Of a stretch of 64,000 nucleotides of DNA, positions 42,056 through 62,665 are shown in pieces; position 1 is the first letter of the stretch, and each line of letters opens with the position of its first letter. The stretch is from Candidatus Multivoradales bacterium (lineage in GTDB: Bacteria > Acidobacteriota > Thermoanaerobaculia > Multivoradales > J023), in NCBI GenBank assembly GCA_965248925.1, contig CBDFLE010000006.1, positions 1,440,001 to 1,504,000 of the forward strand. Direction: 5' to 3'. The position numbers were made by a program, and so were the translations under genes. A model generated the notes under the pieces. The model was given only the letters and a program-made list of their open reading frames with translations, had not been told where the DNA came from and ran no database searches.

Positions 42056-44449
42056 TCAAATGTCCGGTTGAGCCTCTCCGGAGGTGTTCCGAGGCCCTGG
42101 GAAGGCCAGGCTCCGGGGTGGCGCCTTCTTGATCGCGAACCGCATCCGTAGCTCGGTGCCGGGGAAGTGGGTGGCGGTAGCGTTGAGTTCTTCGCAGACG
42201 GCGGCGATCGCCGCCGTCTTGTGGGGAGAGCTGAGCGGGTCGATGGAAAGGAGCAGCACGGTGTCGGTAACCTCCATATCGCCGCCGGCCGCGAAAGCGC
42301 TTTGGATCAGGGTGCGTCCCTCCTGCTCGGTGCGGCGGTAGTGGGGTGATAGGAGCCGGAGAAGATCACCTTCGGCCTGGTAGGCGACCATCTTGAGAAT
42401 ATCGGTGAGGTGCTTGCGCTCGACGGACAGCTTGATGACATCCGCTTCGACGACCTCTTGGACGGGGACGCGGACGGGGAGGGTCGCGCGCTGGTTCTCG
42501 AGTTCGGTGATCTGCTCTATCGCTGCCCGGACCCTGGCGGAGATGGCGGCGTTGGCGATCTTGAATCCGCGCATCGTGCGCCGCCGATCCTCGCGGTTTT
42601 CAAGAGCAGCGATCCCGATGTGGGCCCGGAGCTGCTCGAGATGTGCGTGAGCTTTGCGCAGCTCTGCATTGATCTTGCCGCGCTCGGGATTCGGCACATC
42701 GCGGGCGGCGTCCGCTGGCTCGGTGCCATAGTCCACCAGGGCATCGAGTGCGAATTCTTCGCGCAGGTATTTGAAGAAGTTCTCTTGCCTCCAACGATCG
42801 AACATGCGGTAGGCGACCTCGAGTGTGGAGAGGTCGCGGCGGGAGGTGATGATGGACGTCTGGTGGCCGTTGTCGCAGAGGCGGGTGACCTGGCGCAGGT
42901 ACAGCCGCTTGCGCTTCTTCCTCGGGCCATACTCGAGGTAGATACGCTGATCGGCGAGGAGGTACTCGAGCTTCCGCCCGTGGATCGTGTCCTTGATCTG
43001 CCCGAACTTGCTCAACGGCACCGGACGAAAGGGGGCCTTTCGGTATGTGAGGATGTCGAACTTCTTGGCGATGAGCTTCGCAAACAGCTTCGGGCTCCAA
43101 CCCCCACGGTCGAAGACGACGGTGACTCGCCGGTCTCCGAGTAGCTTTCGTACCTCTTCGAGAATGAGGGGAAGCATCGTCGCAAGCCCCTTGTTGGCCT
43201 CGGTGGGGACCACGAAGAGAGGCTCGCTCTCAGCATCGTTGACCCAGTAGTCGGTGGTGGCCGGCATCGCGATCCGCATCCGCGCTACGTGTGTCTTGGG
43301 AATCTCTCGGCCACCGTGGTAGGCGCGCACATGCCCGTCCACGTAGAGGAAGCCCATGGCATGGCCCCTGGTGGCGACCCGGCGCTGAGCGAGGGCGCGA
43401 CCGAGATCCGCGGCCAGGCCATGCGCGGCCAGCCGAGCGAGCTTGTTGCGCAAGGTTTTCACTTCCGGCGCTCGGTCGAGCCCGAGAAGCTGACCCAAAT
43501 GCCGGGGTGAGCGCTCCTTGAGCCCTTCGGGTCGCTTGACCCGCAACAGTGCCATCAGCAGCAGGGTTACCAGAGTGGTGCGCAGCCCATAGAAGGCCGG
43601 CCCGATGCTGCCGTACAGCTCCTGCGCGATGGAGAGCACGCCGCTGTCCACCAGGGCGGGAATCGCCAGCAGAGCACCGGCGCCCGGTAGCTGGGTCGCC
43701 GCTCCGAAGATCGGCGCCGCATCATCGAGGAATCCCAGCCTCGCCAGCAGCCGATCGCTGGCGCGATCCGCTGGATCGAGGTCCAGCGAGAGGGGAACCT
43801 GATCTTGCTCGGACGCAGAAGCGGACAGTTTTGGGTCCGCAGCCGCTGGGTCACCGCCACCCTCAGCGTCGAGCGCAAGATCCGCAGTTTTCAGGGGGCC
43901 GTCGACCTGCTGCTCATCAGAGGCGGACAGTTTTGGGTCCGCACTCTCGAAGGGCATCGTCATCTGCACTACCGACCGCTCTTTCCAGCCCAGGCGCTTG
44001 GCGAGCTTGCGAACGGCCTTCTCATCGATGCCCAGCCGCCGGCCAATCTCGCGATTCGACACACCCTCGGCCTTCCAGCCGTTGACCGCGTCCAGGCGGC
44101 CCTGCGCTACCCGAGACTGACCCCGGGGAAAACCGCGCGGCCGGCCCAGAGCAGCCAGCCCACCTTCTTCGAAGCGGCGCTGATTCCGGCGCACAGTCCG
44201 CACATCACAAGCGAACGCAAGGGCCACCTCGCGTTGCTGTGCCCAGCCCAATTCAACGAGACTCACCATCGCGTGGGCCTCGCCTGTCCTGTCGCCGGCA
44301 GCGAAGTGAGCGAGCGGCATGCCGCTGACCACCACCACCCGATAGCCGCCCCTCTGCTGGAGGCGGCAGCGGTCGTTGATCACCACAACCCCATCGGGGA
44401 CCCCGGCGTGGTCTGGGAACAGGACGGTGTGCTCGCTCGTCAGTGCCAT
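42056..44449 (-). CDS. DDE transposase (IS4-superfamily-like fold) with N-terminal HTH domains
   Basis: LYVDGH (D), VFDRGG (D), YRMFDRWRQENFFK (E, YREK-like); HTH-like QQREVALAF and SNREIGRRLGIDEKAVRK. Confidence 0.88.
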   Translation of the reverse strand: MALTSEHTVLFPDHAGVPDGVVVINDRCRLQQRGGYRVVVVSGMPLAHFAAGDRTGEAHAMVSLVELGWAQQREVALAFACDVRTVRRNQRRFEEGGLAALGRPRGFPRGQSRVAQGRLDAVNGWKAEGVSNREIGRRLGIDEKAVRKLAKRLGWKERSVVQMTMPFESADPKLSASDEQQVDGPLKTADLALDAEGGGDPAAADPKLSASASEQDQVPLSLDLDPADRASDRLLARLGFLDDAAPIFGAATQLPGAGALLAIPALVDSGVLSIAQELYGSIGPAFYGLRTTLVTLLLMALLRVKRPEGLKERSPRHLGQLLGLDRAPEVKTLRNKLARLAAHGLAADLGRALAQRRVATRGHAMGFLYVDGHVRAYHGGREIPKTHVARMRIAMPATTDYWVNDAESEPLFVVPTEANKGLATMLPLILEEVRKLLGDRRVTVVFDRGGWSPKLFAKLIAKKFDILTYRKAPFRPVPLSKFGQIKDTIHGRKLEYLLADQRIYLEYGPRKKRKRLYLRQVTRLCDNGHQTSIITSRRDLSTLEVAYRMFDRWRQENFFKYLREEFALDALVDYGTEPADAARDVPNPERGKINAELRKAHAHLEQLRAHIGIAALENREDRRRTMRGFKIANAAISARVRAAIEQITELENQRATLPVRVPVQEVVEADVIKLSVERKHLTDILKMVAYQAEGDLLRLLSPHYRRTEQEGRTLIQSAFAAGGDMEVTDTVLLLSIDPLSSPHKTAAIAAVCEELNATATHFPGTELRMRFAIKKAPPRSLAFPGPRNTSGEAQPDI

Positions 44450-45596: not shown

Positions 45597-47201
45597 TCAG
45601 AGCCGCAAGACGGTGATCTGCCGGCCGCTGTGCTCGATCCCTTTGCGAGAGCAGCGTTCAGCGATCGGTGGCGCGTTCTGACGCTGGTCGAAGAGCACCA
45701 GGGTGCCGGCATCGAGGCCCAGGCGGATCAAGTACTGGCCGAGCTGCTCCAGACCCTCTTCGAGCGGGTCGCTGTCACCGTTGCGACGTACTTTGAGCTC
45801 AGCGGCGAAACGTTCGACGCCGCCTTCTGGCAGCGGCCAACGCACCAGCAGGTCGACGCGCCCGCTGCCAACCGCATATTCGCGATCGATCGCCGCCACG
45901 CCGGCCGGCCGAGCTTTGACCTCGGCGCTGCCGTTGACCACCCGGTGCAGCCACGCGGAGATGACCAGCTGCGCCGCCGCCTCGGAGTAGGGTTGGCGGT
46001 TGAGCATCCATTCGGCATTCGACTTCCAGAAAGCGGTGAAGCCATCGAGTAACTGGTGCCAGAGCAGGCGACCATCCTCGGCGATGTAAGTACTGCGGGG
46101 CACCGGCAAGAATGCTTCGGTGGCCGCGGTCAAGGCTCGCGGGATAATCTCGCGGTAGATGGGATTGGCAATCTCCAGCATGCCGGCACCCGGTGCGACC
46201 AGGCCCAGGTCCTTGACGAATTGGATGTCGTCGTCGAAGACGTCATCCTGTGGGGAGTTGCCGGTGAGGATCGGCTCGATCACCTTGCGGATACGATCTT
46301 CGCGCAAGCGCTCGATGAGGGAGTCGAGATGGGTGTCGCGACGGCGGATGAGAACTTCTTTCGCCACCTCGACGTCCGTATTCTCGATCGCGCTGCTGCG
46401 ATCGGGCACCAGTTTCTCGACCAACTGGCGCGCCAGGGCGTTGGTCAGCCACGGTTGGCCGCCGGTGAGTTCGAAGGCGCGGGCCTTGGCGGCGGCGGAG
46501 AAGGGTTGGCCGGTCTCCGCGGTGTGCTGCTCGTAGAGCTCGGCGACCTCGCGGGCGTTGAAGTTGCGCAGGGTCAGCGAGTCGCTCTTGATATTGAACG
46601 GCGACGAGCTACCGATCCGCTCCAGGCCGTCACGGCGCGAAATCTTGTAATCGCGAACGTCGCGCAAGCCGACAAGCCCCAAGGCATGAGGGAAACGCGC
46701 CGGCCGGCCAGGGTAGCCGGCATGGAGCTGATCGAGGACCGAGAGCAGTGTGTCGTCGACCAGAGCATCGATTTCGTCGAGGAAGAGCACCACGGGCCGC
46801 GGACAACGGTCACACCAGCGAGTGAGGTACTCCCCGAGCCTTGTCTCAGCGACGACCTCTGCGAGTTCTTTCAGCGGTGCCGGTCGAAGCTCGCTGACCA
46901 GCTGATTGCGGCATTCCAAGTCGATGGAGTGCAGCAGCGCTCTGATGCCGCGCTCGACGTCGTTGCCGGCGACGGCTCCGGGCTTGCAGCTTGCGAGCAC
47001 GGCGGCGTAGGTGGCTTCGGCGGTGAGCGCTTCGGCGAGCAGCCGGGCGCTGGTCGTCTTGCCGCTCTGGCGCGGGGCATGGATGACGAAAAATGCCTTG
47101 TCGTCGATCAGCCGGCGAAGTTCGCCGAGACGCGCCTCGGGCGCCACCATGAAATGGTCGTCAGGGCGACAGATGCCAGCGGTATTGAAACGGCGAGCCA
47201 T
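45597..47201 (-). CDS. AAA-type ATPase with C-terminal PD-(D/E)xK nuclease-like domain
   Basis: FNTAG, HAPRQSGKTT (Walker A), LFLDEID (Walker B), SPFNIK, REY..GSGRVDLLV..ELKV. Confidence 0.82.
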   Translation of the reverse strand: MARRFNTAGICRPDDHFMVAPEARLGELRRLIDDKAFFVIHAPRQSGKTTSARLLAEALTAEATYAAVLASCKPGAVAGNDVERGIRALLHSIDLECRNQLVSELRPAPLKELAEVVAETRLGEYLTRWCDRCPRPVVLFLDEIDALVDDTLLSVLDQLHAGYPGRPARFPHALGLVGLRDVRDYKISRRDGLERIGSSSPFNIKSDSLTLRNFNAREVAELYEQHTAETGQPFSAAAKARAFELTGGQPWLTNALARQLVEKLVPDRSSAIENTDVEVAKEVLIRRRDTHLDSLIERLREDRIRKVIEPILTGNSPQDDVFDDDIQFVKDLGLVAPGAGMLEIANPIYREIIPRALTAATEAFLPVPRSTYIAEDGRLLWHQLLDGFTAFWKSNAEWMLNRQPYSEAAAQLVISAWLHRVVNGSAEVKARPAGVAAIDREYAVGSGRVDLLVRWPLPEGGVERFAAELKVRRNGDSDPLEEGLEQLGQYLIRLGLDAGTLVLFDQRQNAPPIAERCSRKGIEHSGRQITVLRL

Positions 47202-47281
47202 AGGAACATTGTAGAGCCTTCCGACCAGCGTTGCCAAAAGCGGACGGCCTTTTCGACCCTAGAACCAAACGCCCCCCTCTT

Positions 47282-48286: not shown

Positions 48287-49378
48287 TCAAACCAACGCCG
48301 CCTCGACCTCCGCTCGATCGACCAGCACCGAGCGACCCGTGGCCTTGATTTCGGGCTCGAACTCGTAGTCGCGGATCACCCGCCTGAAAACCTCGCGCAA
48401 AGCCCTGGCACCCAAACGCGGCTGGCTGGCGGCCGCGTTGGCGATTGCTTGGATGGCGGCGGGTGAGAGGGCCAGGTCGTAGCCGCGGCTCTCAAAGTAG
48501 CGCCGCGCCTGGTGGTAGCCCGAGTCGGGGACTTCGAGGAAGATGCGCTCGAGTTCGTCGACCGTCAAGTCGTCGAGCAGCACCACCGCGTCGAAGCGGG
48601 ACAAGAACTGTGGGCTCATGCCGTAGTCGAAAAGGTCTTCGTTCTTGAGCCAATCGCGCAGGGCGAACTCGAGCCGCTGTTCGACGTTGCCGTCTTCAAC
48701 CACCGTTACCGGCTGTAGCGCGCCTTTGTCCTTGCCGACCGTGACCCGGTCGTACACCGCGTCCCACAAACCCTCGAAGGCACCCGCACTGACGAACAGC
48801 AGGCCGCTTGAGTCCACTGTCAAAGTCTTACCTCCAGCCCAATCCGGCAGAGTGAAGGGCACCGATTCGTTCTCAATCAGGGTAAGCAGGGCTTCTTGCG
48901 CCCGGATACCGGCAGTGTTGGGCAGGCCACCCACGTGAGCGCGGATCTTGTCGACCTCGTCGATGAACACCAAGCCACCACGCGCTTGCTTGAGCAAGGT
49001 GGCGACCGGGGTCGCGGCCCCGAGCTGCTCGCGAGCGCGTTCTAGCAGGCGCCGCAGCACCGCCTCACCGGGTCGCCCTCGGGCCGCTTCTTCACCCAGC
49101 ACGTTGGCGTGGATGCGAATCACCGTCGAACGCAAGGCCAACTCCGGGCGCTGGCTGAGGTACTGCTCCACCGCCCGCATCAGGGTGGTCTTGCCGGTAC
49201 CCGAGGAACCGATCATCAGCAAGTTGCCGAGGGGCAAACCGGCGAGCTTCTTCGACAGGGCGATCGACATCTCGCGAATCGCTTCGCGCTGACCGATCAC
49301 CCTCTTCTCGAGCTCAGCGGCAATCTCCTTCGGGCTGGGAACCTTGGCCGACACTTCGCTACTGGACATGCCCACCAT
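48287..49378 (-). CDS. Atypical ClpX-like AAA+ ATPase
   Basis: PSPKEI..VIGQREA, GSSGTGKT, VFIDEVDKI, GAFEGL, DLFDYGMSPQFLSRF, LGARALR; no zinc-binding domain. Confidence 0.85.
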   Translation of the reverse strand: MVGMSSSEVSAKVPSPKEIAAELEKRVIGQREAIREMSIALSKKLAGLPLGNLLMIGSSGTGKTTLMRAVEQYLSQRPELALRSTVIRIHANVLGEEAARGRPGEAVLRRLLERAREQLGAATPVATLLKQARGGLVFIDEVDKIRAHVGGLPNTAGIRAQEALLTLIENESVPFTLPDWAGGKTLTVDSSGLLFVSAGAFEGLWDAVYDRVTVGKDKGALQPVTVVEDGNVEQRLEFALRDWLKNEDLFDYGMSPQFLSRFDAVVLLDDLTVDELERIFLEVPDSGYHQARRYFESRGYDLALSPAAIQAIANAAASQPRLGARALREVFRRVIRDYEFEPEIKATGRSVLVDRAEVEAALV

Positions 49379-52150: not shown

Positions 52151-53356
52151 ATGCGCAACTCCCACACCAAGACCGCTATCGCCGCCGCCGGCACCGCTCC
52201 CCAACCGGCCCGGCCGGCAGTAGCGGCGGCGCAGAGGATCGTCATCAAGCTCGGCAGTCGGGTGTTGACCAACGACGACGGCAGCCTGGCGCAGCAACGT
52301 ATGCGCGCCGTGGTGGCAACCGCCGCCGCGCTGCGCCACAGCGGTCGCCAGGTGTTGTTGGTGAGCTCGGGAGCCGTGTCCCTGGGCCGCGCTGAGTTGG
52401 GACTCGATCGCCTGCCTCCCAATCGCGGTCTGCGGCAAGCCTGTGCTGCGGTCGGACAGACCCGCTTGACCACCTTCTACCAACGGGTCAGTAGCCCTTT
52501 CGGCCTCAGCTGCGGCCAGCTCCTGGTCAGCCACCGCGATCTCAACGACCGCCAGCGAGCGCTGAATCTGCGTCGCATCCTCGATGCCCTGCTGGACCAG
52601 GGAGTGCTGCCGGTGCTGAACGAGAACGATGCCTTGGGCGACGACAGCGAGCCCGAAGCCACCCCCGCCTTCACCGACAACGATCGCCTGGCGGCCTTGG
52701 TAGCCAGCGAGGTTGCGGCCGACCTGCTGCTGCTGTTGACCGATGTCGAGGGTCTCTACGATCGCAACCCCAAGACCGACTCCACGGCGCGACTGCTGAG
52801 CCGCATCGATGATCTCGACGCTCTGCCACAGGTCGATCCTGAGCCTGGATCGGCCCTCGGTCGGGGCGGCATGCAGAGCAAGGTCGAAGCAGCGCGACTC
52901 GCTTGCCTGGGCGGCTGCCAGACGGTAATCGCCAACGGCCTGCGGGCCGGTGGTCTGTCGCAAGCGGTGGCCGGTGATGAGATCGGCACCTGGTTAGCAG
53001 CCAGTGGCTGGCTGGGGGCGCGCAAGCGTTGGATCGGTCTGACCGCGCCGTCTCGCGGCGCCCTCTACCTGGACGCTGGCGCGGTCGAGGCGCTGTGCGC
53101 ACACAACGCTTCCTTGCTGAGCGCTGGGGTCGAGCGCATCACCGGCCGCTTTCGCAGTGGCGATGTGGTCGAGCTGCGCTCTGCCGATGATCAGCTGATC
53201 GGCCGCGCCTTGGTGCGGCTGAACTCGACCGCCGCTCGCCGCCGCTGTGCCACAAGCAATCGTGCCGTCAGCAGCGCTGCCGTCAGTAGCCGTGCCGCCA
53301 GCGGCGGTGATCCAACCCTAATTTCGCGCACCGATATCGTGCTTCCCCCCAGCTGA
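52151..53356 (+). CDS. proB: Glutamate 5-kinase with PUA domain
   Basis: IVIKLGSRVL, VSSGAV, AAVGQ, LNENDA, DNDRLAA, GRGGMQSKV. Confidence 0.96.
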   Translation: MRNSHTKTAIAAAGTAPQPARPAVAAAQRIVIKLGSRVLTNDDGSLAQQRMRAVVATAAALRHSGRQVLLVSSGAVSLGRAELGLDRLPPNRGLRQACAAVGQTRLTTFYQRVSSPFGLSCGQLLVSHRDLNDRQRALNLRRILDALLDQGVLPVLNENDALGDDSEPEATPAFTDNDRLAALVASEVAADLLLLLTDVEGLYDRNPKTDSTARLLSRIDDLDALPQVDPEPGSALGRGGMQSKVEAARLACLGGCQTVIANGLRAGGLSQAVAGDEIGTWLAASGWLGARKRWIGLTAPSRGALYLDAGAVEALCAHNASLLSAGVERITGRFRSGDVVELRSADDQLIGRALVRLNSTAARRRCATSNRAVSSAAVSSRAASGGDPTLISRTDIVLPPS

Positions 53357-53370
53357 AGGAGTGCCCTGCA

Positions 53371-54660
53371 ATGAAACTGGATCTAGCGCCCCTTGCTCAC
53401 CAAGTCCGTCAAGCTCAGCGCCAGCTCGCCAGCGCTCCGGGCAGCCAACGTTCGCAACTCTTGTGGAATCTCGCCACCCTGCTCGAGGAGCGCCGAGAAG
53501 AACTGCTGGCGGCCAACCGTCTGGACCTTGAAGCCGCCCGCCGAGACGGCCTGGCCCCCCCCCTACTACGCCGACTGGAGCTAACCCCGGCAAAAATCGC
53601 GACTCTCTGCCAAGGCGCCCGCCAACTCGCCGAACAAGGCGATCCTCTGGGCCAGGTGCTGCGCCGCACCGAACTCGATGACGGCCTTGAACTCACCCAA
53701 GTGCGCAGTCCCATCGGCGTGCTCTTGATCATCTTCGAGAGCCGCCCGGACGTGGTCATTCAGATCGGTTCCCTGGCCCTGCGCAGCGGCAATGGCGTCT
53801 TGCTCAAAGGAGGTTCGGAAGCCACTCAATCGAACCGCCTACTGGCTCAATGCCTGGCCGATGTGCTGGCCAGTGAAGATCTGCCAGGGGCGGCCGTCAG
53901 CCTGGTCGAAGGACGCCAGGCGGTGCACCAGCTACTCGAACTTGACTCGCTGATCGATCTGGTGATTCCGCGCGGCTCTGGAGAGCTGGTGCGATCGATC
54001 CAAAACGCTACTCGCATCCCGGTTTTGGGTCACGCTGAAGGCATCTGCCACCTCTATGTCGACGTCGACGCCGATCCACGGATGGCGACACACTTGGCGG
54101 TGGACGGCAAATGTGGCTATCCGGCGGCCTGCAACGCCACCGAGACCCTGCTGGTGCACGAGGACTTCCTCCCCCGGCTGCCCGCGGTGGGCCGAGCCTT
54201 GCTCGAAGCCGGGGTCGTGCTGCGTGCCGACGCCCGTGCCCGTGCCCACCTGAGCGCCGTCGAGCCCGCCAGCAGCAACGACTGGCAGACCGAGTGGGGT
54301 GGGCTTACCCTGGGGATCAAGACCGTCGCCAACTTGGCCGCGGCGGTCGACCACATCCACCGCTACGGCAGCGCCCACACCGAATCGATCGTTACAGACA
54401 ACGCCGCCACGGCAGAGAGCTTTCTACGCCAAGTCGACGCCGCCTCAGTGTTTCACAACGCCAGCACCCGCTTTGCCGACGGCTATCGCTACGGCCTCGG
54501 CGCCGAGGTGGGTATCTCTACCGGTCGCATTCACGCTCGCGGACCGGTTGGCGCCGAGGGCCTGCTGACCACTCGCTGGCTGCTGCGCGGCAGCGGCCAA
54601 GCGGCGGCGGACTATGGCGCCGGCAAACGGGCCTTCAAGCACCGCGTCCTCCCCAACTGA
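53371..54660 (+). CDS. proA: Gamma-glutamyl phosphate reductase
   Basis: FESRP, LKGGSEA, IPRG, ACNATETLLVH, NASTRFADG, GAEVGISTGRIHARGPVG. Confidence 0.97.
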   Translation: MKLDLAPLAHQVRQAQRQLASAPGSQRSQLLWNLATLLEERREELLAANRLDLEAARRDGLAPPLLRRLELTPAKIATLCQGARQLAEQGDPLGQVLRRTELDDGLELTQVRSPIGVLLIIFESRPDVVIQIGSLALRSGNGVLLKGGSEATQSNRLLAQCLADVLASEDLPGAAVSLVEGRQAVHQLLELDSLIDLVIPRGSGELVRSIQNATRIPVLGHAEGICHLYVDVDADPRMATHLAVDGKCGYPAACNATETLLVHEDFLPRLPAVGRALLEAGVVLRADARARAHLSAVEPASSNDWQTEWGGLTLGIKTVANLAAAVDHIHRYGSAHTESIVTDNAATAESFLRQVDAASVFHNASTRFADGYRYGLGAEVGISTGRIHARGPVGAEGLLTTRWLLRGSGQAAADYGAGKRAFKHRVLPN

Positions 54661-59643: not shown

Positions 59644-59919
59644 ATGTCCAAGCAATACTCGATAGCCACTGCCCGCAACAACCTGCCCGCACTGGTTCAC
59701 GCGGTGGAAAACGGACCGCCGCTAGAACTGACCCGCCGTGGAAGACCGGTCGCGGTGCTGCTGTCCTGCTCCGATTACGAGAAGCTGAAGCGCGGCAAGT
59801 CAGATTTGTGGGAAGCCATTGAAGATTTTCGCCGTAGCGCGGATCTAGCCCTCCTCGACATCGACCAGGCCTACGCCGGGGTGCGTGATCCAGCACCGGG
59901 CCGTGAACCCGAGCTATAA
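59644..59919 (+). CDS. Phd/YefM-family antitoxin
   Basis: YSIATARNNLPALV..LTRRGRPVAVLLS. Confidence 0.9.
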   Translation: MSKQYSIATARNNLPALVHAVENGPPLELTRRGRPVAVLLSCSDYEKLKRGKSDLWEAIEDFRRSADLALLDIDQAYAGVRDPAPGREPEL

Positions 59920-59921
59920 CG

Positions 59922-60356
59922 GTGCGCTACCTGCTCGACACCAACGTGCTGTCCGAGCCGGCAAAGCCCGAGCCAAATGTGGCGCTCATGCAGCGGCTTG
60001 CACGCCACCGCAACGAAGTCTGCACCGCCACGTTGGTGTGGCACGAGCTGCTCTACGGCTGCCACCGCTTGCCACCCTCGAAGCGACGCGAGCAGCTCAG
60101 CGCCTATCTGCACGACTGGCTCGAGCCCTCGCTGGTTGTCTTACCGTACGACACTCCCGCCGCCGAGTGGCATGCAGAGCAGCGGGCGCGCTTGAGCCGG
60201 ATTGGCAAGACCCCGGCTTTCATCGACGGTCAGATAGCGGCCGTAGCACGGGTTCATGACCTCGTTGTGGTGACTAGCAACGTGTCCGACTTTCGGGATT
60301 TTAGCGGGCTCGCGGTAGAAGACTGGCGCCAGCAAAGTCGCGGAGCAACCTGCTGA
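59922..60356 (+). CDS. vapC: VapC/PIN-domain toxin
   Basis: YLLDTNVLSE, HELLYG, DGQIAA, VTSNVSDF. Confidence 0.93.
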   Translation: MRYLLDTNVLSEPAKPEPNVALMQRLARHRNEVCTATLVWHELLYGCHRLPPSKRREQLSAYLHDWLEPSLVVLPYDTPAAEWHAEQRARLSRIGKTPAFIDGQIAAVARVHDLVVVTSNVSDFRDFSGLAVEDWRQQSRGATC

Positions 60357-60373: not shown

Positions 60374-62665
60374 ATGAGCAACTTACCGTTCTCCAGTCTG
60401 GCGAAACGCCTGGAGCAGCTCGAATTCCGGCTGCTCGGTGAAGAAGGCTCGACTGCCTTCGCCGAGCTGGGGCCACCCGCGAGCCTCGAACGGCTCTTCG
60501 GCCTCGAGCTGCGCCTGTTACTGCGACGCGGGCCGGGGGCGCGGCCCACCCCGGCAGACTTGGTGGCCACCGCTGCCAGCGCCGCCGCTGAAGGCGCTCT
60601 GCCTTTGGCCGCCACGGGCAGGCTGCGCCAGTTTCTCGATCTCCAGGGAGTTCTGCTGAAGCGGGCCGATGCCTGGCAGGGCCCACTGTGGTGGCAGCCG
60701 CTGCCGGCTCCGACAGCGCTCGAAGAACTCAGTCGGGAGCTTCAAGAAGCGTTACAAATTCCAACCGGCGAGCCGCTCGCCGAGACCCTCTCGGCCAGCG
60801 GGGAGGGCTGGTGGACGACCAACACCCTACTCAGGCCGACCTATGTCAGCCAGCTGGCGACCGAACTTGAAGGCGCTTTCCAAGGTGGCCAGCTGCCCCT
60901 GGAACGGGCTGGGGTCGGCAGCGACGGCCTGACCTCGACGGCTCGCTCTGACCAAGTCGCCTACCTCGATGGCACTGAACCCGAGTTGCTGGCGGTGGCG
61001 CCCCGTGCCGCGGCGCTGATCCAAAGTGTTCTGGTGGAGTTCGCCGAGGTACTGGATATTGGCGGCAGAGGGCAAGTCGCGCTAGCGCCGGAGCGTGCCA
61101 TGCTGGCCCGTTATCCCGCTCCTTCAGGAGGTTTCAGACCCCACCTGGACAATCCCGGAGGGGAACACGACAACGGCCGTAGCAGAACCCTGGTGCTCTA
61201 CCTCAATCCCGCCAACGCCCTCTGCCAGGGCGGCGAGCTGGCCTTGTGGTCGGCCGGCACCGCGACCACCGCAGAACCGGTGGCGGTGCTCAAACCACGG
61301 CCGGGCTGGGCGGCGCTATTTGATTCACGGAAGATCCCCCACCAAGTCCGAGCCCTACGCCCCGGCCCTCCCAGATGGGCCTTGACCCTGTGGTTCAATG
61401 ATCACCTGTCCGGCACAGCGTCCACCCCAGCGCTACCCAAACTCGACCTCACCGATCTGCTGCTGCTGATCAGCTCACCACCACTGCCGGCCGATAGGGT
61501 GCTCTTCCACCAACTCGACGACCGCGATCCACGGGGCCAGCTGACCGTGGTGCGGGCACCAGTATCGGCGGCGGCTCGGCGCTCACGATTCGGGGTGGTC
61601 AGTACGGTCTACCGCTGTGGCGCGGCACTGGCCGACTGGTGCGATCATCACCTGGCCCTCGGCGCGGCCCATCTGCTGCTGATTTTCGATCACCTGGAAC
61701 AACCGGCCGAGGCTGCCTTGGCCACTGCACTGCAAGGCCGTTGGCCGCGCGAACAGCTGCAAGTGTGGTCTGGCGGCGACCTGCTGGCCAGCGGCTGGCC
61801 GGCCCTCGATCCCACCCCGGAGCACCAGCAGCTACGCCGCCTGGCGACCGGTGGCCCCAGCTCCTACGCGGTGGCCGCACGGCAGACCCTCAACGCCTCG
61901 ACGGCATTGGAGGCGGCGCGAGGTGAACAACTCGGCGGCACGCCCCTCGACTGGCTGCTGCACCTTGACGGCGACGAGCTGTTGTATTTGCAAGGCAGAG
62001 GTCGCGGCGGCGCAGACCTGACGCAGCACTTGGCAGCCGCTGAGCAAGCTGGCTGGTCACTCTTGCGCTATCTCAACCATGAGTTGCTGAGCAGCCCCCA
62101 GGGGCCTTCGCCACGATTCAAGATCCACCCCCGAGTGGCAGCGACTATACTCGGCAGCGGCGGCTGGAAACACCTGGAACGACATCTGAAGATGTCCGCC
62201 GACGATCACCGGCCCTATTTCAACAGCTACCGCAATGGCAAAGCGGCGGTACGAGTGACCGCCGCCCGGGCTGCCGCGGGCGTACACAGCTGGTCGCCGC
62301 AGCAGCCGACCCGCAGCGCCAGCCACTGGTTGGCCGGGCCATCGGTGCTGCACTGCTATTGCCCCACAGCAGCCGAGTTCGCCGCCAAATACCGTTCCAA
62401 GGCCAACGCGCCGCCGCTCGCCGAACGCCCTTTCGAGCCTTCGGCAGCTGAAGTCGCGGCATTAGAGACTCTGCACCAGCTCGAAACCAGCGCCGCCAGC
62501 GAATCGCAGGTCGAGGCTGCGCTCACGGCTCTCCACCACCGACTGAGCGAATTCAACGCTAGCGAGCTCGAGCTGCTGGACGAAGCCGGCTTGCTCTTCA
62601 CTTGCGACTCGCCAACCGCCGAACGATTCGCTAGCCGCCTGCTCGATGCCAACGTGGCCGAATAA
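60374..62665 (+). CDS. Fusion of a PHD/EGLN-like 2OG-Fe(II) oxygenase and a GT-A (KOBITO1/GT92-like) glycosyltransferase domain
   Basis: RSDQVAYLDG, FRPHLDNP..GRSRTLVLYLN, GGEL, PHQV, RWALTLWF; then DWCDHHLALG, RQTLNA, DWLLHLDGDELL, YRNGKAAVRV. Confidence 0.78.
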   Translation: MSNLPFSSLAKRLEQLEFRLLGEEGSTAFAELGPPASLERLFGLELRLLLRRGPGARPTPADLVATAASAAAEGALPLAATGRLRQFLDLQGVLLKRADAWQGPLWWQPLPAPTALEELSRELQEALQIPTGEPLAETLSASGEGWWTTNTLLRPTYVSQLATELEGAFQGGQLPLERAGVGSDGLTSTARSDQVAYLDGTEPELLAVAPRAAALIQSVLVEFAEVLDIGGRGQVALAPERAMLARYPAPSGGFRPHLDNPGGEHDNGRSRTLVLYLNPANALCQGGELALWSAGTATTAEPVAVLKPRPGWAALFDSRKIPHQVRALRPGPPRWALTLWFNDHLSGTASTPALPKLDLTDLLLLISSPPLPADRVLFHQLDDRDPRGQLTVVRAPVSAAARRSRFGVVSTVYRCGAALADWCDHHLALGAAHLLLIFDHLEQPAEAALATALQGRWPREQLQVWSGGDLLASGWPALDPTPEHQQLRRLATGGPSSYAVAARQTLNASTALEAARGEQLGGTPLDWLLHLDGDELLYLQGRGRGGADLTQHLAAAEQAGWSLLRYLNHELLSSPQGPSPRFKIHPRVAATILGSGGWKHLERHLKMSADDHRPYFNSYRNGKAAVRVTAARAAAGVHSWSPQQPTRSASHWLAGPSVLHCYCPTAAEFAAKYRSKANAPPLAERPFEPSAAEVAALETLHQLETSAASESQVEAALTALHHRLSEFNASELELLDEAGLLFTCDSPTAERFASRLLDANVAE

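Follow-up and report, generated by a model that had tools for sequence, protein, structure and literature searches.

The gene described here encodes a single protein in which a prolyl 4-hydroxylase domain of the PHD/EGLN type (aa ~120-348) is joined to a glycosyltransferase domain with the GT-A fold, of the PF13704/GT92-like kind; from sequence and structural models, catalysis by the first and sugar transfer by the second are both predicted. The function proposed for this fusion (P4H-GT) is that of a soluble cytoplasmic enzyme that hydroxylates a prolyl residue and then glycosylates the same protein or peptide substrate, a reading to which we assign an even chance. The order of the two steps, hydroxylation and then glycosylation, is plausible.

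Architecture and conservation of the fusion protein

In the ORF list of the window (i.e., the whole 64,000-nucleotide stretch that was analysed), the gene appeared as one open reading frame with an ATG start, the features of which are given in Table 1. The motifs named by a first-pass annotation were located at HLDNP (257-261), GRSRTLVLYLN (268-278), PHQV (322-325), RWALTLWF (334-341) and LHLDGDELL (529-537). A further motif, 'Y.NGK..R', was present but had been given with the wrong spacing, since three residues separate K and R in Y619-R-N-G-K-A-A-V-R627. The domain limits suggested there (~140-350 and ~395-750) agreed with the Pfam matches, which were far beyond chance: PF13640 at aa 243-342 (E = 2.8e-16) and PF13704 at aa 417-541 (E = 8.5e-7). 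The cut-off of PF13704 is 27.5 bits, and the domain scored 29.8, or 33.4 when the whole genome was searched, a small margin. NCBIfam returned no match for the 763-aa protein, its N-terminal 139 aa or its last 93 aa. The highest 19-residue Kyte-Doolittle mean was 0.33 for windows starting at residues 1-25 and 1.59 anywhere in the protein; the N-terminus is therefore not hydrophobic, which fits a cytoplasmic protein and the earlier view that a signal peptide is absent. There were four sequencing-run holders, all of one study, and none of those listed was RNA.

Table 1. Features of the P4H-GT gene and its product, in window positions
Feature	Residues	Position	Strand	Basis
P4H-GT fusion protein, whole ORF	763 aa	60374..62665	+	ORF; homolog coverage
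N-terminal helical domain, family-specific	aa 1-117	60374..60724	+	predicted helices aa 6-97
PHD/EGLN-type 2OG/Fe(II) prolyl 4-hydroxylase domain	aa ~120-348	60731..61417	+	PF13640, profiles, fold
HxD of Fe(II) triad	H257-L-D259	61142..61150	+	invariance; EGLN1/2 H-V-D alignment
Distal Fe(II) ligand, in PHQV	H323	61340..61342	+	invariant; aligned to EGLN PHEV
2OG C5-carboxylate-binding Arg, in RWALTLWF	R334	61373..61375	+	invariant; aligned to EGLN RYAITVW
Inter-domain linker, PPLP-type motif and beta-hairpin (aa 376-393)	aa 349-400	61418..61573	+	consensus, model
GT-A glycosyltransferase domain, PF13704/GT92-like	aa ~401-668	61574..62377	+	Pfam, model, fold matches
DxD metal/nucleotide-sugar motif	H530-L-D532-G-D534-E535	61961..61978	+	invariance in alignments A1, A2, A3
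C-terminal invariant GT residues, putative roles	N621-G-K623 to H638	62234..62287	+	alignments
C-terminal helical extension	aa 669-745	62378..62608	+	predicted helices

The fusion is no artefact of assembly. Each of the 119 homologs listed aligned over 74-99% of the query, with identities of 40-51%, and most of them came from Acidobacteriota. The two domains are really joined, and the Fe triad, the 2OG-binding Arg and the DxD motif were invariant across homologs; together with the GT-A model of the C-terminal half, this leaves none of the three refuting outcomes that the first-pass annotation had named. Within an alignment of 38 family sequences (A1), mean pairwise identity was 0.40 for the N-terminal domain, 0.38 for the linker, 0.56 for the GT domain and 0.45 for the C-terminal extension. 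The GT domain was the most conserved part, with at least 90% identity in 73 of its 268 columns, and only the tail (aa 746-763) was not conserved. A literature search found no description of an architecture combining a PHD-type P4H with a PF13704 GT.

Four fusions have the reverse order, PF13704 followed by PF13640 (P0177, P0214, P0198 and P0240), with PF13704 above the cut-off in P0177 and P0214 only, the second of which comes from a dinoflagellate. In a quick tree search, their GT domains formed a different clade, and the separating branch had an SH-aLRT support of 99.

The N-terminal helical domain produced no structural match, only two of 50 fold-search rows beginning before residue 112, and the first 139 aa had no Pfam match. 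However, it was 41% identical to aa 326-434 of a paralog, P0151, in which the helical domain and the GT are kept and the oxygenase is replaced by a radical-SAM domain. This paralog was found in one protein cluster only; the best matches of its radical-SAM domain, all weak and far below cut-offs, were the peptide maturases HxsC, PqqE and YydG, and no obvious precursor gene was seen among its neighbours. As the helical domain accompanies the GT in this paralog too, where another domain has taken the place of the oxygenase, it may serve in substrate recognition or as a scaffold. Linker strands were predicted at aa 376-382 and 385-393, and helices of the C-terminal extension at model residues 289-300, 314-328, 333-348 and 352-360 (aa 666-737).

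The oxygenase and glycosyltransferase domains

The assignment of the N-terminal half to the PHD/EGLN type, first made from motifs, was borne out by sequence, profile and fold. Human PHD2/EGLN1 and Trichoplax PHD (TaPHD) were its best sequence and fold matches, and all of the active-site motifs listed could be aligned with them. EGLN2 was matched by sequence (E = 1.9e-8), while profile comparison matched EGLN1 (E = 1.5e-21), TaPHD (2.3e-20) and the Pseudomonas enzyme PPHD (4iw3; 2.8e-16). Alignment to EGLN by residue covered the R-x-D, Y-P, HxD, R...Y-L-N, PHxV and R...W motifs. The HxD...H triad that had been called intact (H257, D259 and H323), together with R334, was invariant in 38 of 38 sequences and aligned to the corresponding EGLN residues; R191, D193, Y247, H257, D259, R269 and Y276 were invariant in 57 of 57.

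The predicted fold consisted of a double-stranded beta-helix core with N-terminal helices (pLDDT 92.8; Foldseek E = 5.8e-12 for the domain model). VIA-align of aa ~120-348 gave Z scores of 20.6 for TaPHD, 20.5 for PPHD, 20.2 for PHD2, 19.6 for DdPhyA and 19.4 for the Phytophthora P4H, so that the best five structural matches were all protein prolyl hydroxylases. OGFOD1/Tpa1 were lower (Z about 17), as were small-molecule oxygenases (16.7 or less), and the Z score of mimivirus lysyl hydroxylase was only 13.1, where the PHDs gave about 20. Compared with PHD2 and TaPHD, only a short helix (aa 359-363) stood between the P4H-GT core and the linker in the model. PPHD superposed with an rmsd of 2.7 over 196 residues, at 26% identity, and shares the same Fe and 2OG residues, but it consists of one domain, about 200 aa long, and has no GT. 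The beta2-beta3 finger loop (aa ~171-193) was extended and had lower pLDDT (blocks of 89 and 71), and its residues R191 and D193 aligned to the RGDxI(A/T)W of EGLN. According to a passage of PMC7864055, an extended finger loop is characteristic of those 2OG oxygenases that act on macromolecules.

For the C-terminal half, searches of PDB by sequence and by profile found no relative. The model (pLDDT 93.8, pTM 0.93) nevertheless had a GT-A fold with a single Rossmann-like domain, and its structural matches agreed with the GT-A assignment made previously. GalS1 (8d3t) aligned over 221 residues (Z = 13.3, rmsd 4.2) and SunS (7msp) over 220 (Z = 12.8, rmsd 4.2), although identity to either was only 10-14%. 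Among the best 50 rows of a wide fold search, rows 1-22 were glycosyltransferases or glycan synthases (Z from 13.3 to 10.0), and lower rows included nucleotidyltransferases with the same fold. SunS and ThuS, which are peptide S-glycosyltransferases, were among the best matches, and the GT domain of LH3 appeared in the Foldseek list (E = 3.5e-5). GalS1, SunS, BcsA and hyaluronan synthase lay within about 1.5 Z of one another, and the fold therefore fixes no subfamily. No Gnt1 structure occurred among the fold rows listed; a GalNAc-T, presumably akin to Gnt1, was tenth (Z = 10.7).

The DxD motif claimed within LHLDGDELL was substantiated, D532-x-D534 being invariant in A1, in A2 (which includes stand-alone GTs) and in A3. 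H530, D532, D534 and E535 were invariant in A1 and A2, with D, D and E retained in A3, while G622, K623 and H638 were invariant in all three. PF13704 was matched at E of 0.001 or less in 24 of the 25 relatives scanned. PF01697 was not among the Pfam matches, and in the Atlas, where the features of the domain resembled bacterial GT92-like clusters (scores 0.97 and 0.96), PF01697 was carried by 22-29% of members of the bacterial 'GT92' clusters. The likeness to plant KOBITO1 (in Arabidopsis NP_187467.1, as cited in PMC10684911) that had been put forward is a putative one: no match of that name occurred in the C-half profile search, the cluster look-ups or the Atlas, and the source text available for KOBITO1 gives it a GT-A-type superfamily domain and states nothing more specific, such as a Pfam family. 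The domain seen in P4H-GT is of the PF13704/GT92-like kind. Plant GT92 members are assigned PF13704 in an excerpt of PMC11765706.

Relatives of the GT domain were stand-alone or otherwise fused (to alpha-amylase or TPR), and the domain is thus a versatile module. GalS1 elongates galactan and SunS glycosylates a peptide Cys, and neither is fused to an oxygenase. As GalS1 is the top structural match, its action on a glycan, and not on a protein, is a counterpoint to a protein acceptor. The GT might extend a polysaccharide or glycolipid under O2 control, with the PHD-type domain as a regulatory O2 or 2OG sensor directed at the enzyme or at a partner; the top matches included GalS1, cellulose synthase and hyaluronan synthase, and the Atlas likeness was to bacterial GT92-like clusters. 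However, the protein had no membrane segment and the gene had no polysaccharide gene cluster around it, and the pairing of the helical domain and GT with a radical-SAM domain suggests a catalyst rather than a sensor in that position. This role in glycan synthesis we regard as very unlikely.

Gene neighbourhood and the halogenase-type partner

Across 28 loci and the window, no neighbour family was common to more than four loci, and no linked substrate gene was evident. Nor was any precursor-like gene or conserved cluster found around the P4H-GT loci. An upstream gene confined to one sub-clade, P0299, belonged to no family, and nothing was found in the window's genome when it was used as a query.

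Genes of proline and ornithine metabolism did occur near some loci. The window has proB/proA, an arginase-family gene is found at L004, L005, L009 and L013, and L023 has an ornithine cyclodeaminase. These would suit an enzyme that hydroxylates a free metabolite (proline or a related compound) and then glycosylates it, yielding a glycoside solute or secondary metabolite, as would the presence of PolD (Z = 16.7), PasI (15.6) and mannosylglycerate synthase (10.6) lower in the fold lists. Linkage to a proline pathway was rejected, however, as proB/proA occurred in 0 of 32 other loci and the arginase gene mainly among close kin; identity among L004, L005 and L009 is 88-100%, and its presence there reflects synteny. 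The five best structural matches and the long, conserved finger loop also speak against a small-molecule substrate, and we consider such a pathway quite improbable.

One partner was recurrent, an enzyme of the flavin-halogenase type. Its gene lay directly downstream in five of the 28 loci (L019, L022, L024, L027 and L028), and the domain also occurred in fusions, N-terminal in P0110 and C-terminal in P0111 and P0149; P0112 also carries PF04820. Among 40 relatives, both genes were present in 10, P4H-GT alone in two, the halogenase alone in three and neither in 25; the halogenase-type enzyme therefore occurred in 10 of the 12 relatives carrying P4H-GT. The partner had the motifs GGGVAG, GVGEAT and WSWTIP, and a weak match to TIGR03882, a leader-peptide-binding family (E = 0.0018, far below cut-off). 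In the window's genome the halogenase was on another contig, adjoining a TonB-dependent receptor, and for the proteins flanking it neither PDB nor NCBIfam gave a match. The idea that the first 386 aa of the neighbouring halogenase are a copy of the GT was rejected (hhalign probability 0.1%). Loci combining TBDR, SapC, halogenase and P4H-like genes in Proteobacteria were a candidate parallel, which a literature search did not confirm.

The association with a halogenase and the leader-peptide-binding-like match suggest more complex tailoring than a simple hydroxyproline-sugar mark. Maturation of a ribosomal peptide or natural product is one such case, in which the P4H, the GT and the halogenase-type flavoenzyme would act on different residues (proline hydroxylation; Ser/Thr/Cys glycosylation, as by SunS; and aromatic halogenation or hydroxylation), and the sugar would not be placed on hydroxyproline. 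The rank of SunS and ThuS, the fused, adjacent and co-occurring halogenases, the motifs of the partner and the affinities of the radical-SAM paralog with peptide maturases are all consistent with this, although the TIGR03882 and radical-SAM matches fell far below cut-offs, the precursor-like gene and conserved cluster were wanting, and in the window's own genome the halogenase is on a separate contig. A finger loop strongly conserved across the family, moreover, is easier to reconcile with a single fixed target than with peptides that vary. Peptide tailoring was therefore judged rather unlikely.

Comparison with known systems and proposed function

The first-pass annotation had described the hydroxylase and glycosyltransferase of the protist Skp1 pathway as separate enzymes. 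Oomycetes, however, already offer a case in which a PHD-type P4H of this pathway is joined to a GT. A dual-function P4H/GlcNAc-transferase is reported, in the title of a paper, from a plant pathogen (an oomycete), and the idea of one protein performing both steps therefore has precedent. Gnt1, the GT type concerned, we take to be CAZy family GT60. Like P4H-GT, the dual-function enzyme combines a cytoplasmic PHD-type P4H and a GT of the GT-A fold in one polypeptide, and by analogy the same order, hydroxylation and then glycosylation of hydroxyproline, is proposed here. It differs in being eukaryotic and in having Skp1 as its target, whereas the bacterial fusion has a PF13704/GT92-like GT in place of the Gnt1 type and adds the N-terminal helical domain and the C-terminal helical extension. 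To our knowledge, bacteria possess neither SCF/Skp1 nor HIF-alpha, the substrate of PHD2. In the portion of PMC8724618 concerned, enzyme pairs of the Skp1 pathway are said to be often fused in protists, and the GT is termed pp-alphaGlcNAcT. PPHD is described in part of PMC7864055 as a bacterial PHD homolog in Pseudomonas that hydroxylates EF-Tu, the only bacterial substrate of a PHD-type enzyme named in the literature surveyed.

A second parallel is offered by LH3/PLOD3 and mimivirus L230, where a 2OG oxygenase and a GT-A domain also share one polypeptide and the hydroxylated residue is glycosylated. Their hydroxylase is lysyl-specific, and the enzymes, which are secretory or viral, have collagen as their substrate. 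In LH3 the GT is N-terminal and the lysyl hydroxylase C-terminal, whereas in P4H-GT the oxygenase precedes the GT.

In the mechanism that we propose, the PHD-type domain would bind Fe(II) through H257, D259 and H323 and 2-oxoglutarate through R334, and with O2 would hydroxylate a proline within a macromolecular substrate, as homology, residue conservation and the model suggest. The substrate would be held by the extended finger loop, with R191 and D193 at its base; the strong conservation of this loop suggests a single conserved target, probably encoded elsewhere in the genome. In the GT-A domain, D532-x-D534 is predicted to bind a divalent metal together with a nucleotide sugar, and the domain might pass the sugar on to the same substrate; the simplest acceptor would be the new 4-hydroxyl, which would give a Hyp-O-glycoside. 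The helical domain may recognise this substrate or act as a scaffold, and a halogenase-type flavoenzyme would share the pathway in many lineages. A more specific version can be offered only tentatively, as possible rather than probable: that some Acidobacteriota carry out O2-dependent, cytoplasmic Hyp-O-glycosylation of a conserved target, as a counterpart of the protist Skp1 pathway with another GT family and a halogenase-type partner, and that the radical-SAM paralog provides an O2-independent route to a residue that can be glycosylated.

Plants, algae and protists have glycans linked to hydroxyproline, and PHD-type hydroxylases are oxygen sensors of animals and protists; we know of no hydroxyproline-linked glycans from bacteria. 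The cases treated in the relevant part of PMC8724618 are eukaryotic only. If the proposal is true, PHD-type chemistry coupled to glycosylation would represent a new prokaryotic protein modification, and could reveal a switch responsive to O2 or 2OG. It would also provide a function for the large, uncharacterised bacterial PF13704/GT92-like family, and for the widespread 'tryptophan halogenase' homologs that accompany it.

Reading frame and distribution of the fused gene

Both halves of the P4H-GT protein were recognised by Pfam, the N-terminal half through PF13640 (aa 243-342, E = 2.8e-16) and the C-terminal half through PF13704 (aa 417-541, E = 8.5e-7), which scored 29.8 bits where the cut-off is 27.5; an NCBIfam search of the protein returned no family. 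The motifs quoted in the first-pass annotation were present (HLDNP at 257-261, GRSRTLVLYLN at 268-278, PHQV at 322-325, RWALTLWF at 334-341 and LHLDGDELL at 529-537), and the spacing it gave for the last motif required correction, the sequence reading Y619-x-NGK-xxx-R627. Its statement that a signal peptide was lacking agreed with 19-residue hydropathy windows, which gave no candidate signal peptide or membrane helix across the whole protein (maximum mean 1.59; 0.33 in windows starting at residues 1-25). The GC3 of the gene (0.74) was similar to that of adjoining genes (0.74-0.78).

A word-indexed search with the protein found 136 proteins at E <= 0.001. Among the matches listed, all 119 other than the window's own aligned over 74-99% of the query, with 40-51% identity; each carried PF13640, and most were 700-830 aa long. 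An exhaustive search of representatives gave 573 matches at E <= 0.001, of which 71 reached E <= 1e-30. Full-length or near-full-length relatives were encoded at 28 loci in reference genomes, assigned by title to Thermoanaerobaculia (8), 'Acidobacteriota bacterium' (12), Holophagae or Holophagales (2), Acanthopleuribacteraceae (1), Anaerolineae (2), 'Deltaproteobacteria' (1) and unclassified sources (2). The gene was single-copy in its own genome (7.98 Mb, 6 contigs). Elsewhere in its taxonomic family it was found in 10 of the 23 genomes searched, and in the wider order in 2 of another 17; an even sample of 300 further genomes from across the phylum gave no match at E <= 1e-10. The fusion is thus a conserved, patchily distributed accessory gene rather than an artefact of chimeric assembly. 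At one locus in genome G327 (L059, 8443-10897, minus strand) the match was broken across two reading frames near aa ~480, which reflects either an assembly indel error or a pseudogene.

Coordinates of the P4H-GT gene, its neighbours and related loci
Feature	Location	Strand	Remarks
P4H-GT ORF	window 60374..62665	+	763 aa, single ORF
Phd/YefM antitoxin	window 59644-59919	+	E 1.2e-15
PIN-domain toxin	window 59922-60356	+	E 3.4e-13
proB (AA_kinase + PUA) and proA (Aldedh)	window 52151-54660	+	6-8 kb upstream of P4H-GT
Transposase_29 gene with HTH domains; two AAA/NACHT-like ATPases	window 42056-44449, 45597-47237, 48287-49378	-, -, -	
P0299, 457 aa, without known family	L019 6459-7829		directly upstream of P4H-GT gene
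PF04820 halogenase-type gene	L019 10243-12966		same gene in L022, L024, L027, L028
Radical-SAM paralog P0151	L023 6462-9029		radical-SAM domain in place of 2OG oxygenase; helical and GT domains kept
PF13640 protein, 235 aa	L051 1423-2130	-	DdPhyA E 0.001
GT-B glycosyltransferase, 364 aa	L051 2127-3221	-	MshA/PimA-like, E 6.8e-10
Own-genome halogenase row	L055 5600-14132	-	659-aa unknown, halogenase, 606-aa unknown, TonB-dependent receptor

Predicted activities of the two halves

The closest solved relatives of the oxygenase half by sequence were EGLN2 and EGLN1 (E = 1.9e-8 and below), in an alignment spanning the R-x-D, Y-P, H-x-D-N-P, G-R...T...Y-L-N, P-H-x-V and R...W motifs, while the family profile matched EGLN1 (1.5e-21), Trichoplax PHD (2.3e-20), Pseudomonas PPHD (4iw3; 2.8e-16) and Phytophthora P4H (6.9e-12). 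A confident model of aa 1-394 (pLDDT 92.8) superposed over aa ~120-348 on TaPHD (Z 20.6, rmsd 2.9 over 205 residues), PPHD (Z 20.5, rmsd 2.7 over 196), PHD2 (Z 20.2), DdPhyA (Z 19.6) and Phytophthora P4H (Z 19.4); OGFOD1/Tpa1 (Z about 17) and small-molecule oxygenases (Z 16.7 or less) ranked lower, and Foldseek was consistent with this order. H257, D259, H323 and R334 were invariant in 38 of 38 family sequences, and R191, D193, Y247, H257, D259, R269 and Y276 in 57 sequences that included more distant single-domain relatives. The loop at aa ~171-193 was long, modelled with lower confidence, and strongly conserved (consensus LxLERxGVG...RSDxVxYLxGxEP); PMC7864055 describes the PHD finger loop as binding macromolecular substrates and as short in small-molecule enzymes. 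The profile, fold ranking, invariant residues and conserved loop together lead us to predict a PHD-type protein prolyl hydroxylase, as the PHD/EGLN-type assignment of the first-pass annotation had it; a place in a small-molecule pathway is quite unlikely.

The C-terminal half was modelled with similar confidence (aa 378-763, pLDDT 93.8, pTM 0.93). Its best Foldseek matches were SunS (3.4e-7), GalS1 (8.0e-7), AvpGT, ThuS, LARGE1 and the GT domain of LH3. In a wider fold search, rows 1-22 of the best 50 were all glycosyltransferases or glycan synthases, headed by GalS1 (Z 13.3, rmsd 4.2 over 221 residues), SunS (12.8), BcsA (12.1) and hyaluronan synthase (11.9); IspD and other nucleotidyltransferases that share the fold appeared in lower rows. 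The modelled GT-A fold is thus certain; the subfamily is not, because Z falls gradually down the list. That the protein is a glycan synthase under oxygen control is very unlikely. H530, D532, D534, E535, E570, K583, G622, K623 and H638 were invariant in the family and with stand-alone relatives added, and likewise in an alignment of the C-terminal half only, where H530 was nearly so; the DxD motif noted earlier (D532 and D534) is therefore conserved throughout. The stand-alone relatives measured about 320-370 aa; a source name was available for one of them, 'glycosyltransferase family 2 protein'. Atlas features of this half pointed to bacterial 'GT92' clusters, and plant GT92 galactan synthases are modelled by PF13704 in PMC11765706.

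The GT domain was the most conserved part (identity 0.56, reaching 90% or more in 73 of its 268 columns), followed by the oxygenase (0.48), the C-terminal helices (0.45), the N-terminal helical region at aa 1-117 (mean pairwise identity 0.40) and the linker (0.38). The N-terminal helical region matched no Pfam or NCBIfam family; the fold search covered it only slightly, 2 of the best 50 rows beginning before residue 112.

Gene neighbourhood and the halogenase-type partner

Upstream of the gene in the window lay proB, proA, a TPR protein, a TonB-type outer-membrane protein and a Phd/PIN pair, and downstream a DUF1800 gene. None of these neighbours was conserved: when the 28 loci and the window were compared, no more than four loci had any one neighbour family in common. 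The Phd/YefM and PIN genes form a type II toxin-antitoxin pair on the same strand, ending 17 nt before the P4H-GT start codon, and the pair was absent from the neighbour families shared between these loci. A link to the proline pathway was rejected, as proB/proA occurred in none of 32 other loci. The region 11-18 kb upstream, with its transposase and ATPases, may be mobile or defence-type. P0299, a protein encoded also in L018, L024 and L028 within one sub-clade, contains the Asp-rich motifs DNFLDD and DDLQD, which seem to resemble those of prenyl or terpene synthases.

The sole recurrent partner of P4H-GT was a PF04820 'tryptophan halogenase'-type flavoenzyme. It was fused C-terminally in the homologs P0111 and P0149 and N-terminally in P0110 (aa 2-340, E = 9e-30), was carried also by P0112, and was encoded directly downstream at five loci (42-75% mutual identity). 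Among 40 relatives it occurred in 10 of 12 genomes with the P4H-GT gene against 3 of 28 without, a descriptive comparison since the genomes are related. The partner had GGGVAG, GVGEAT and WSWTIP motifs, and we take WxWxIP to be a halogenase signature. Its N-terminal ~385 aa carried paired CxxC motifs and matched a TOMM leader-peptide-binding domain below threshold (E = 0.0018), scoring 18.5 bits where 36.9 were required. The own-genome homolog was 47% identical and lay on another contig (C5), not near P4H-GT, in a row of same-strand genes followed by a Ser/Thr kinase-TPR protein; the two proteins flanking it (659 and 606 aa) matched no known family. The alternative that P4H-GT and the halogenase tailor several sites of one peptide, the sugar going to a residue other than the hydroxyproline, is rather unlikely.

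Related pairings and proposed activity

Reverse-order fusions, a single paralog and known precedents speak for the two domains acting together. A reverse-order fusion of PF13704 and PF13640 was found in P0177, P0214 (from the dinoflagellate Polarella glacialis), P0198 and P0240, with PF13704 above cut-off in P0177 and P0214 only; the family profile recognised the GT domain of P0177 (E = 8.6e-22), in which every motif was present. A quick tree built from 59 GT domains grouped the window's family as one clade (24 rows, SH-aLRT 99) and put the four reverse fusions in another, with eukaryote-like stand-alone GTs. The two domain types were thus joined on independent occasions. The radical-SAM paralog P0151, a single and so anecdotal protein cluster lacking PF13640, nested inside the family clade. 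It retains the helical domain, 41% identical to aa 13-119, and the linker with the GT domain, 47% identical to aa 373-669. The window's own genome holds a second oxygenase/GT pairing on contig C6, where the start of a PF13640 gene overlaps the end of a GT-B gene by 4 nt.

The concept is already known from the oomycete Skp1 enzyme and LH3: a Skp1 P4H/GlcNAcT fusion has reportedly placed hydroxylase and GT in one protein, and LH3 and mimivirus lysyl hydroxylase-GT enzymes are said to couple the two activities. No description of the P4H-GT architecture was found in the literature searched. Unlike the oomycete enzyme and LH3, the present family is bacterial, uses a different GT family, and has extra helical domains and a link to a halogenase-type enzyme. 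Our preferred reading, over which our confidence is evenly poised, is that P4H-GT is a cytoplasmic enzyme of two activities: the helical domain would recognise the substrate, a conserved protein or peptide, the P4H domain would hydroxylate one of its prolyl residues, and the GT domain would then glycosylate the same substrate, most simply on the new hydroxyl.
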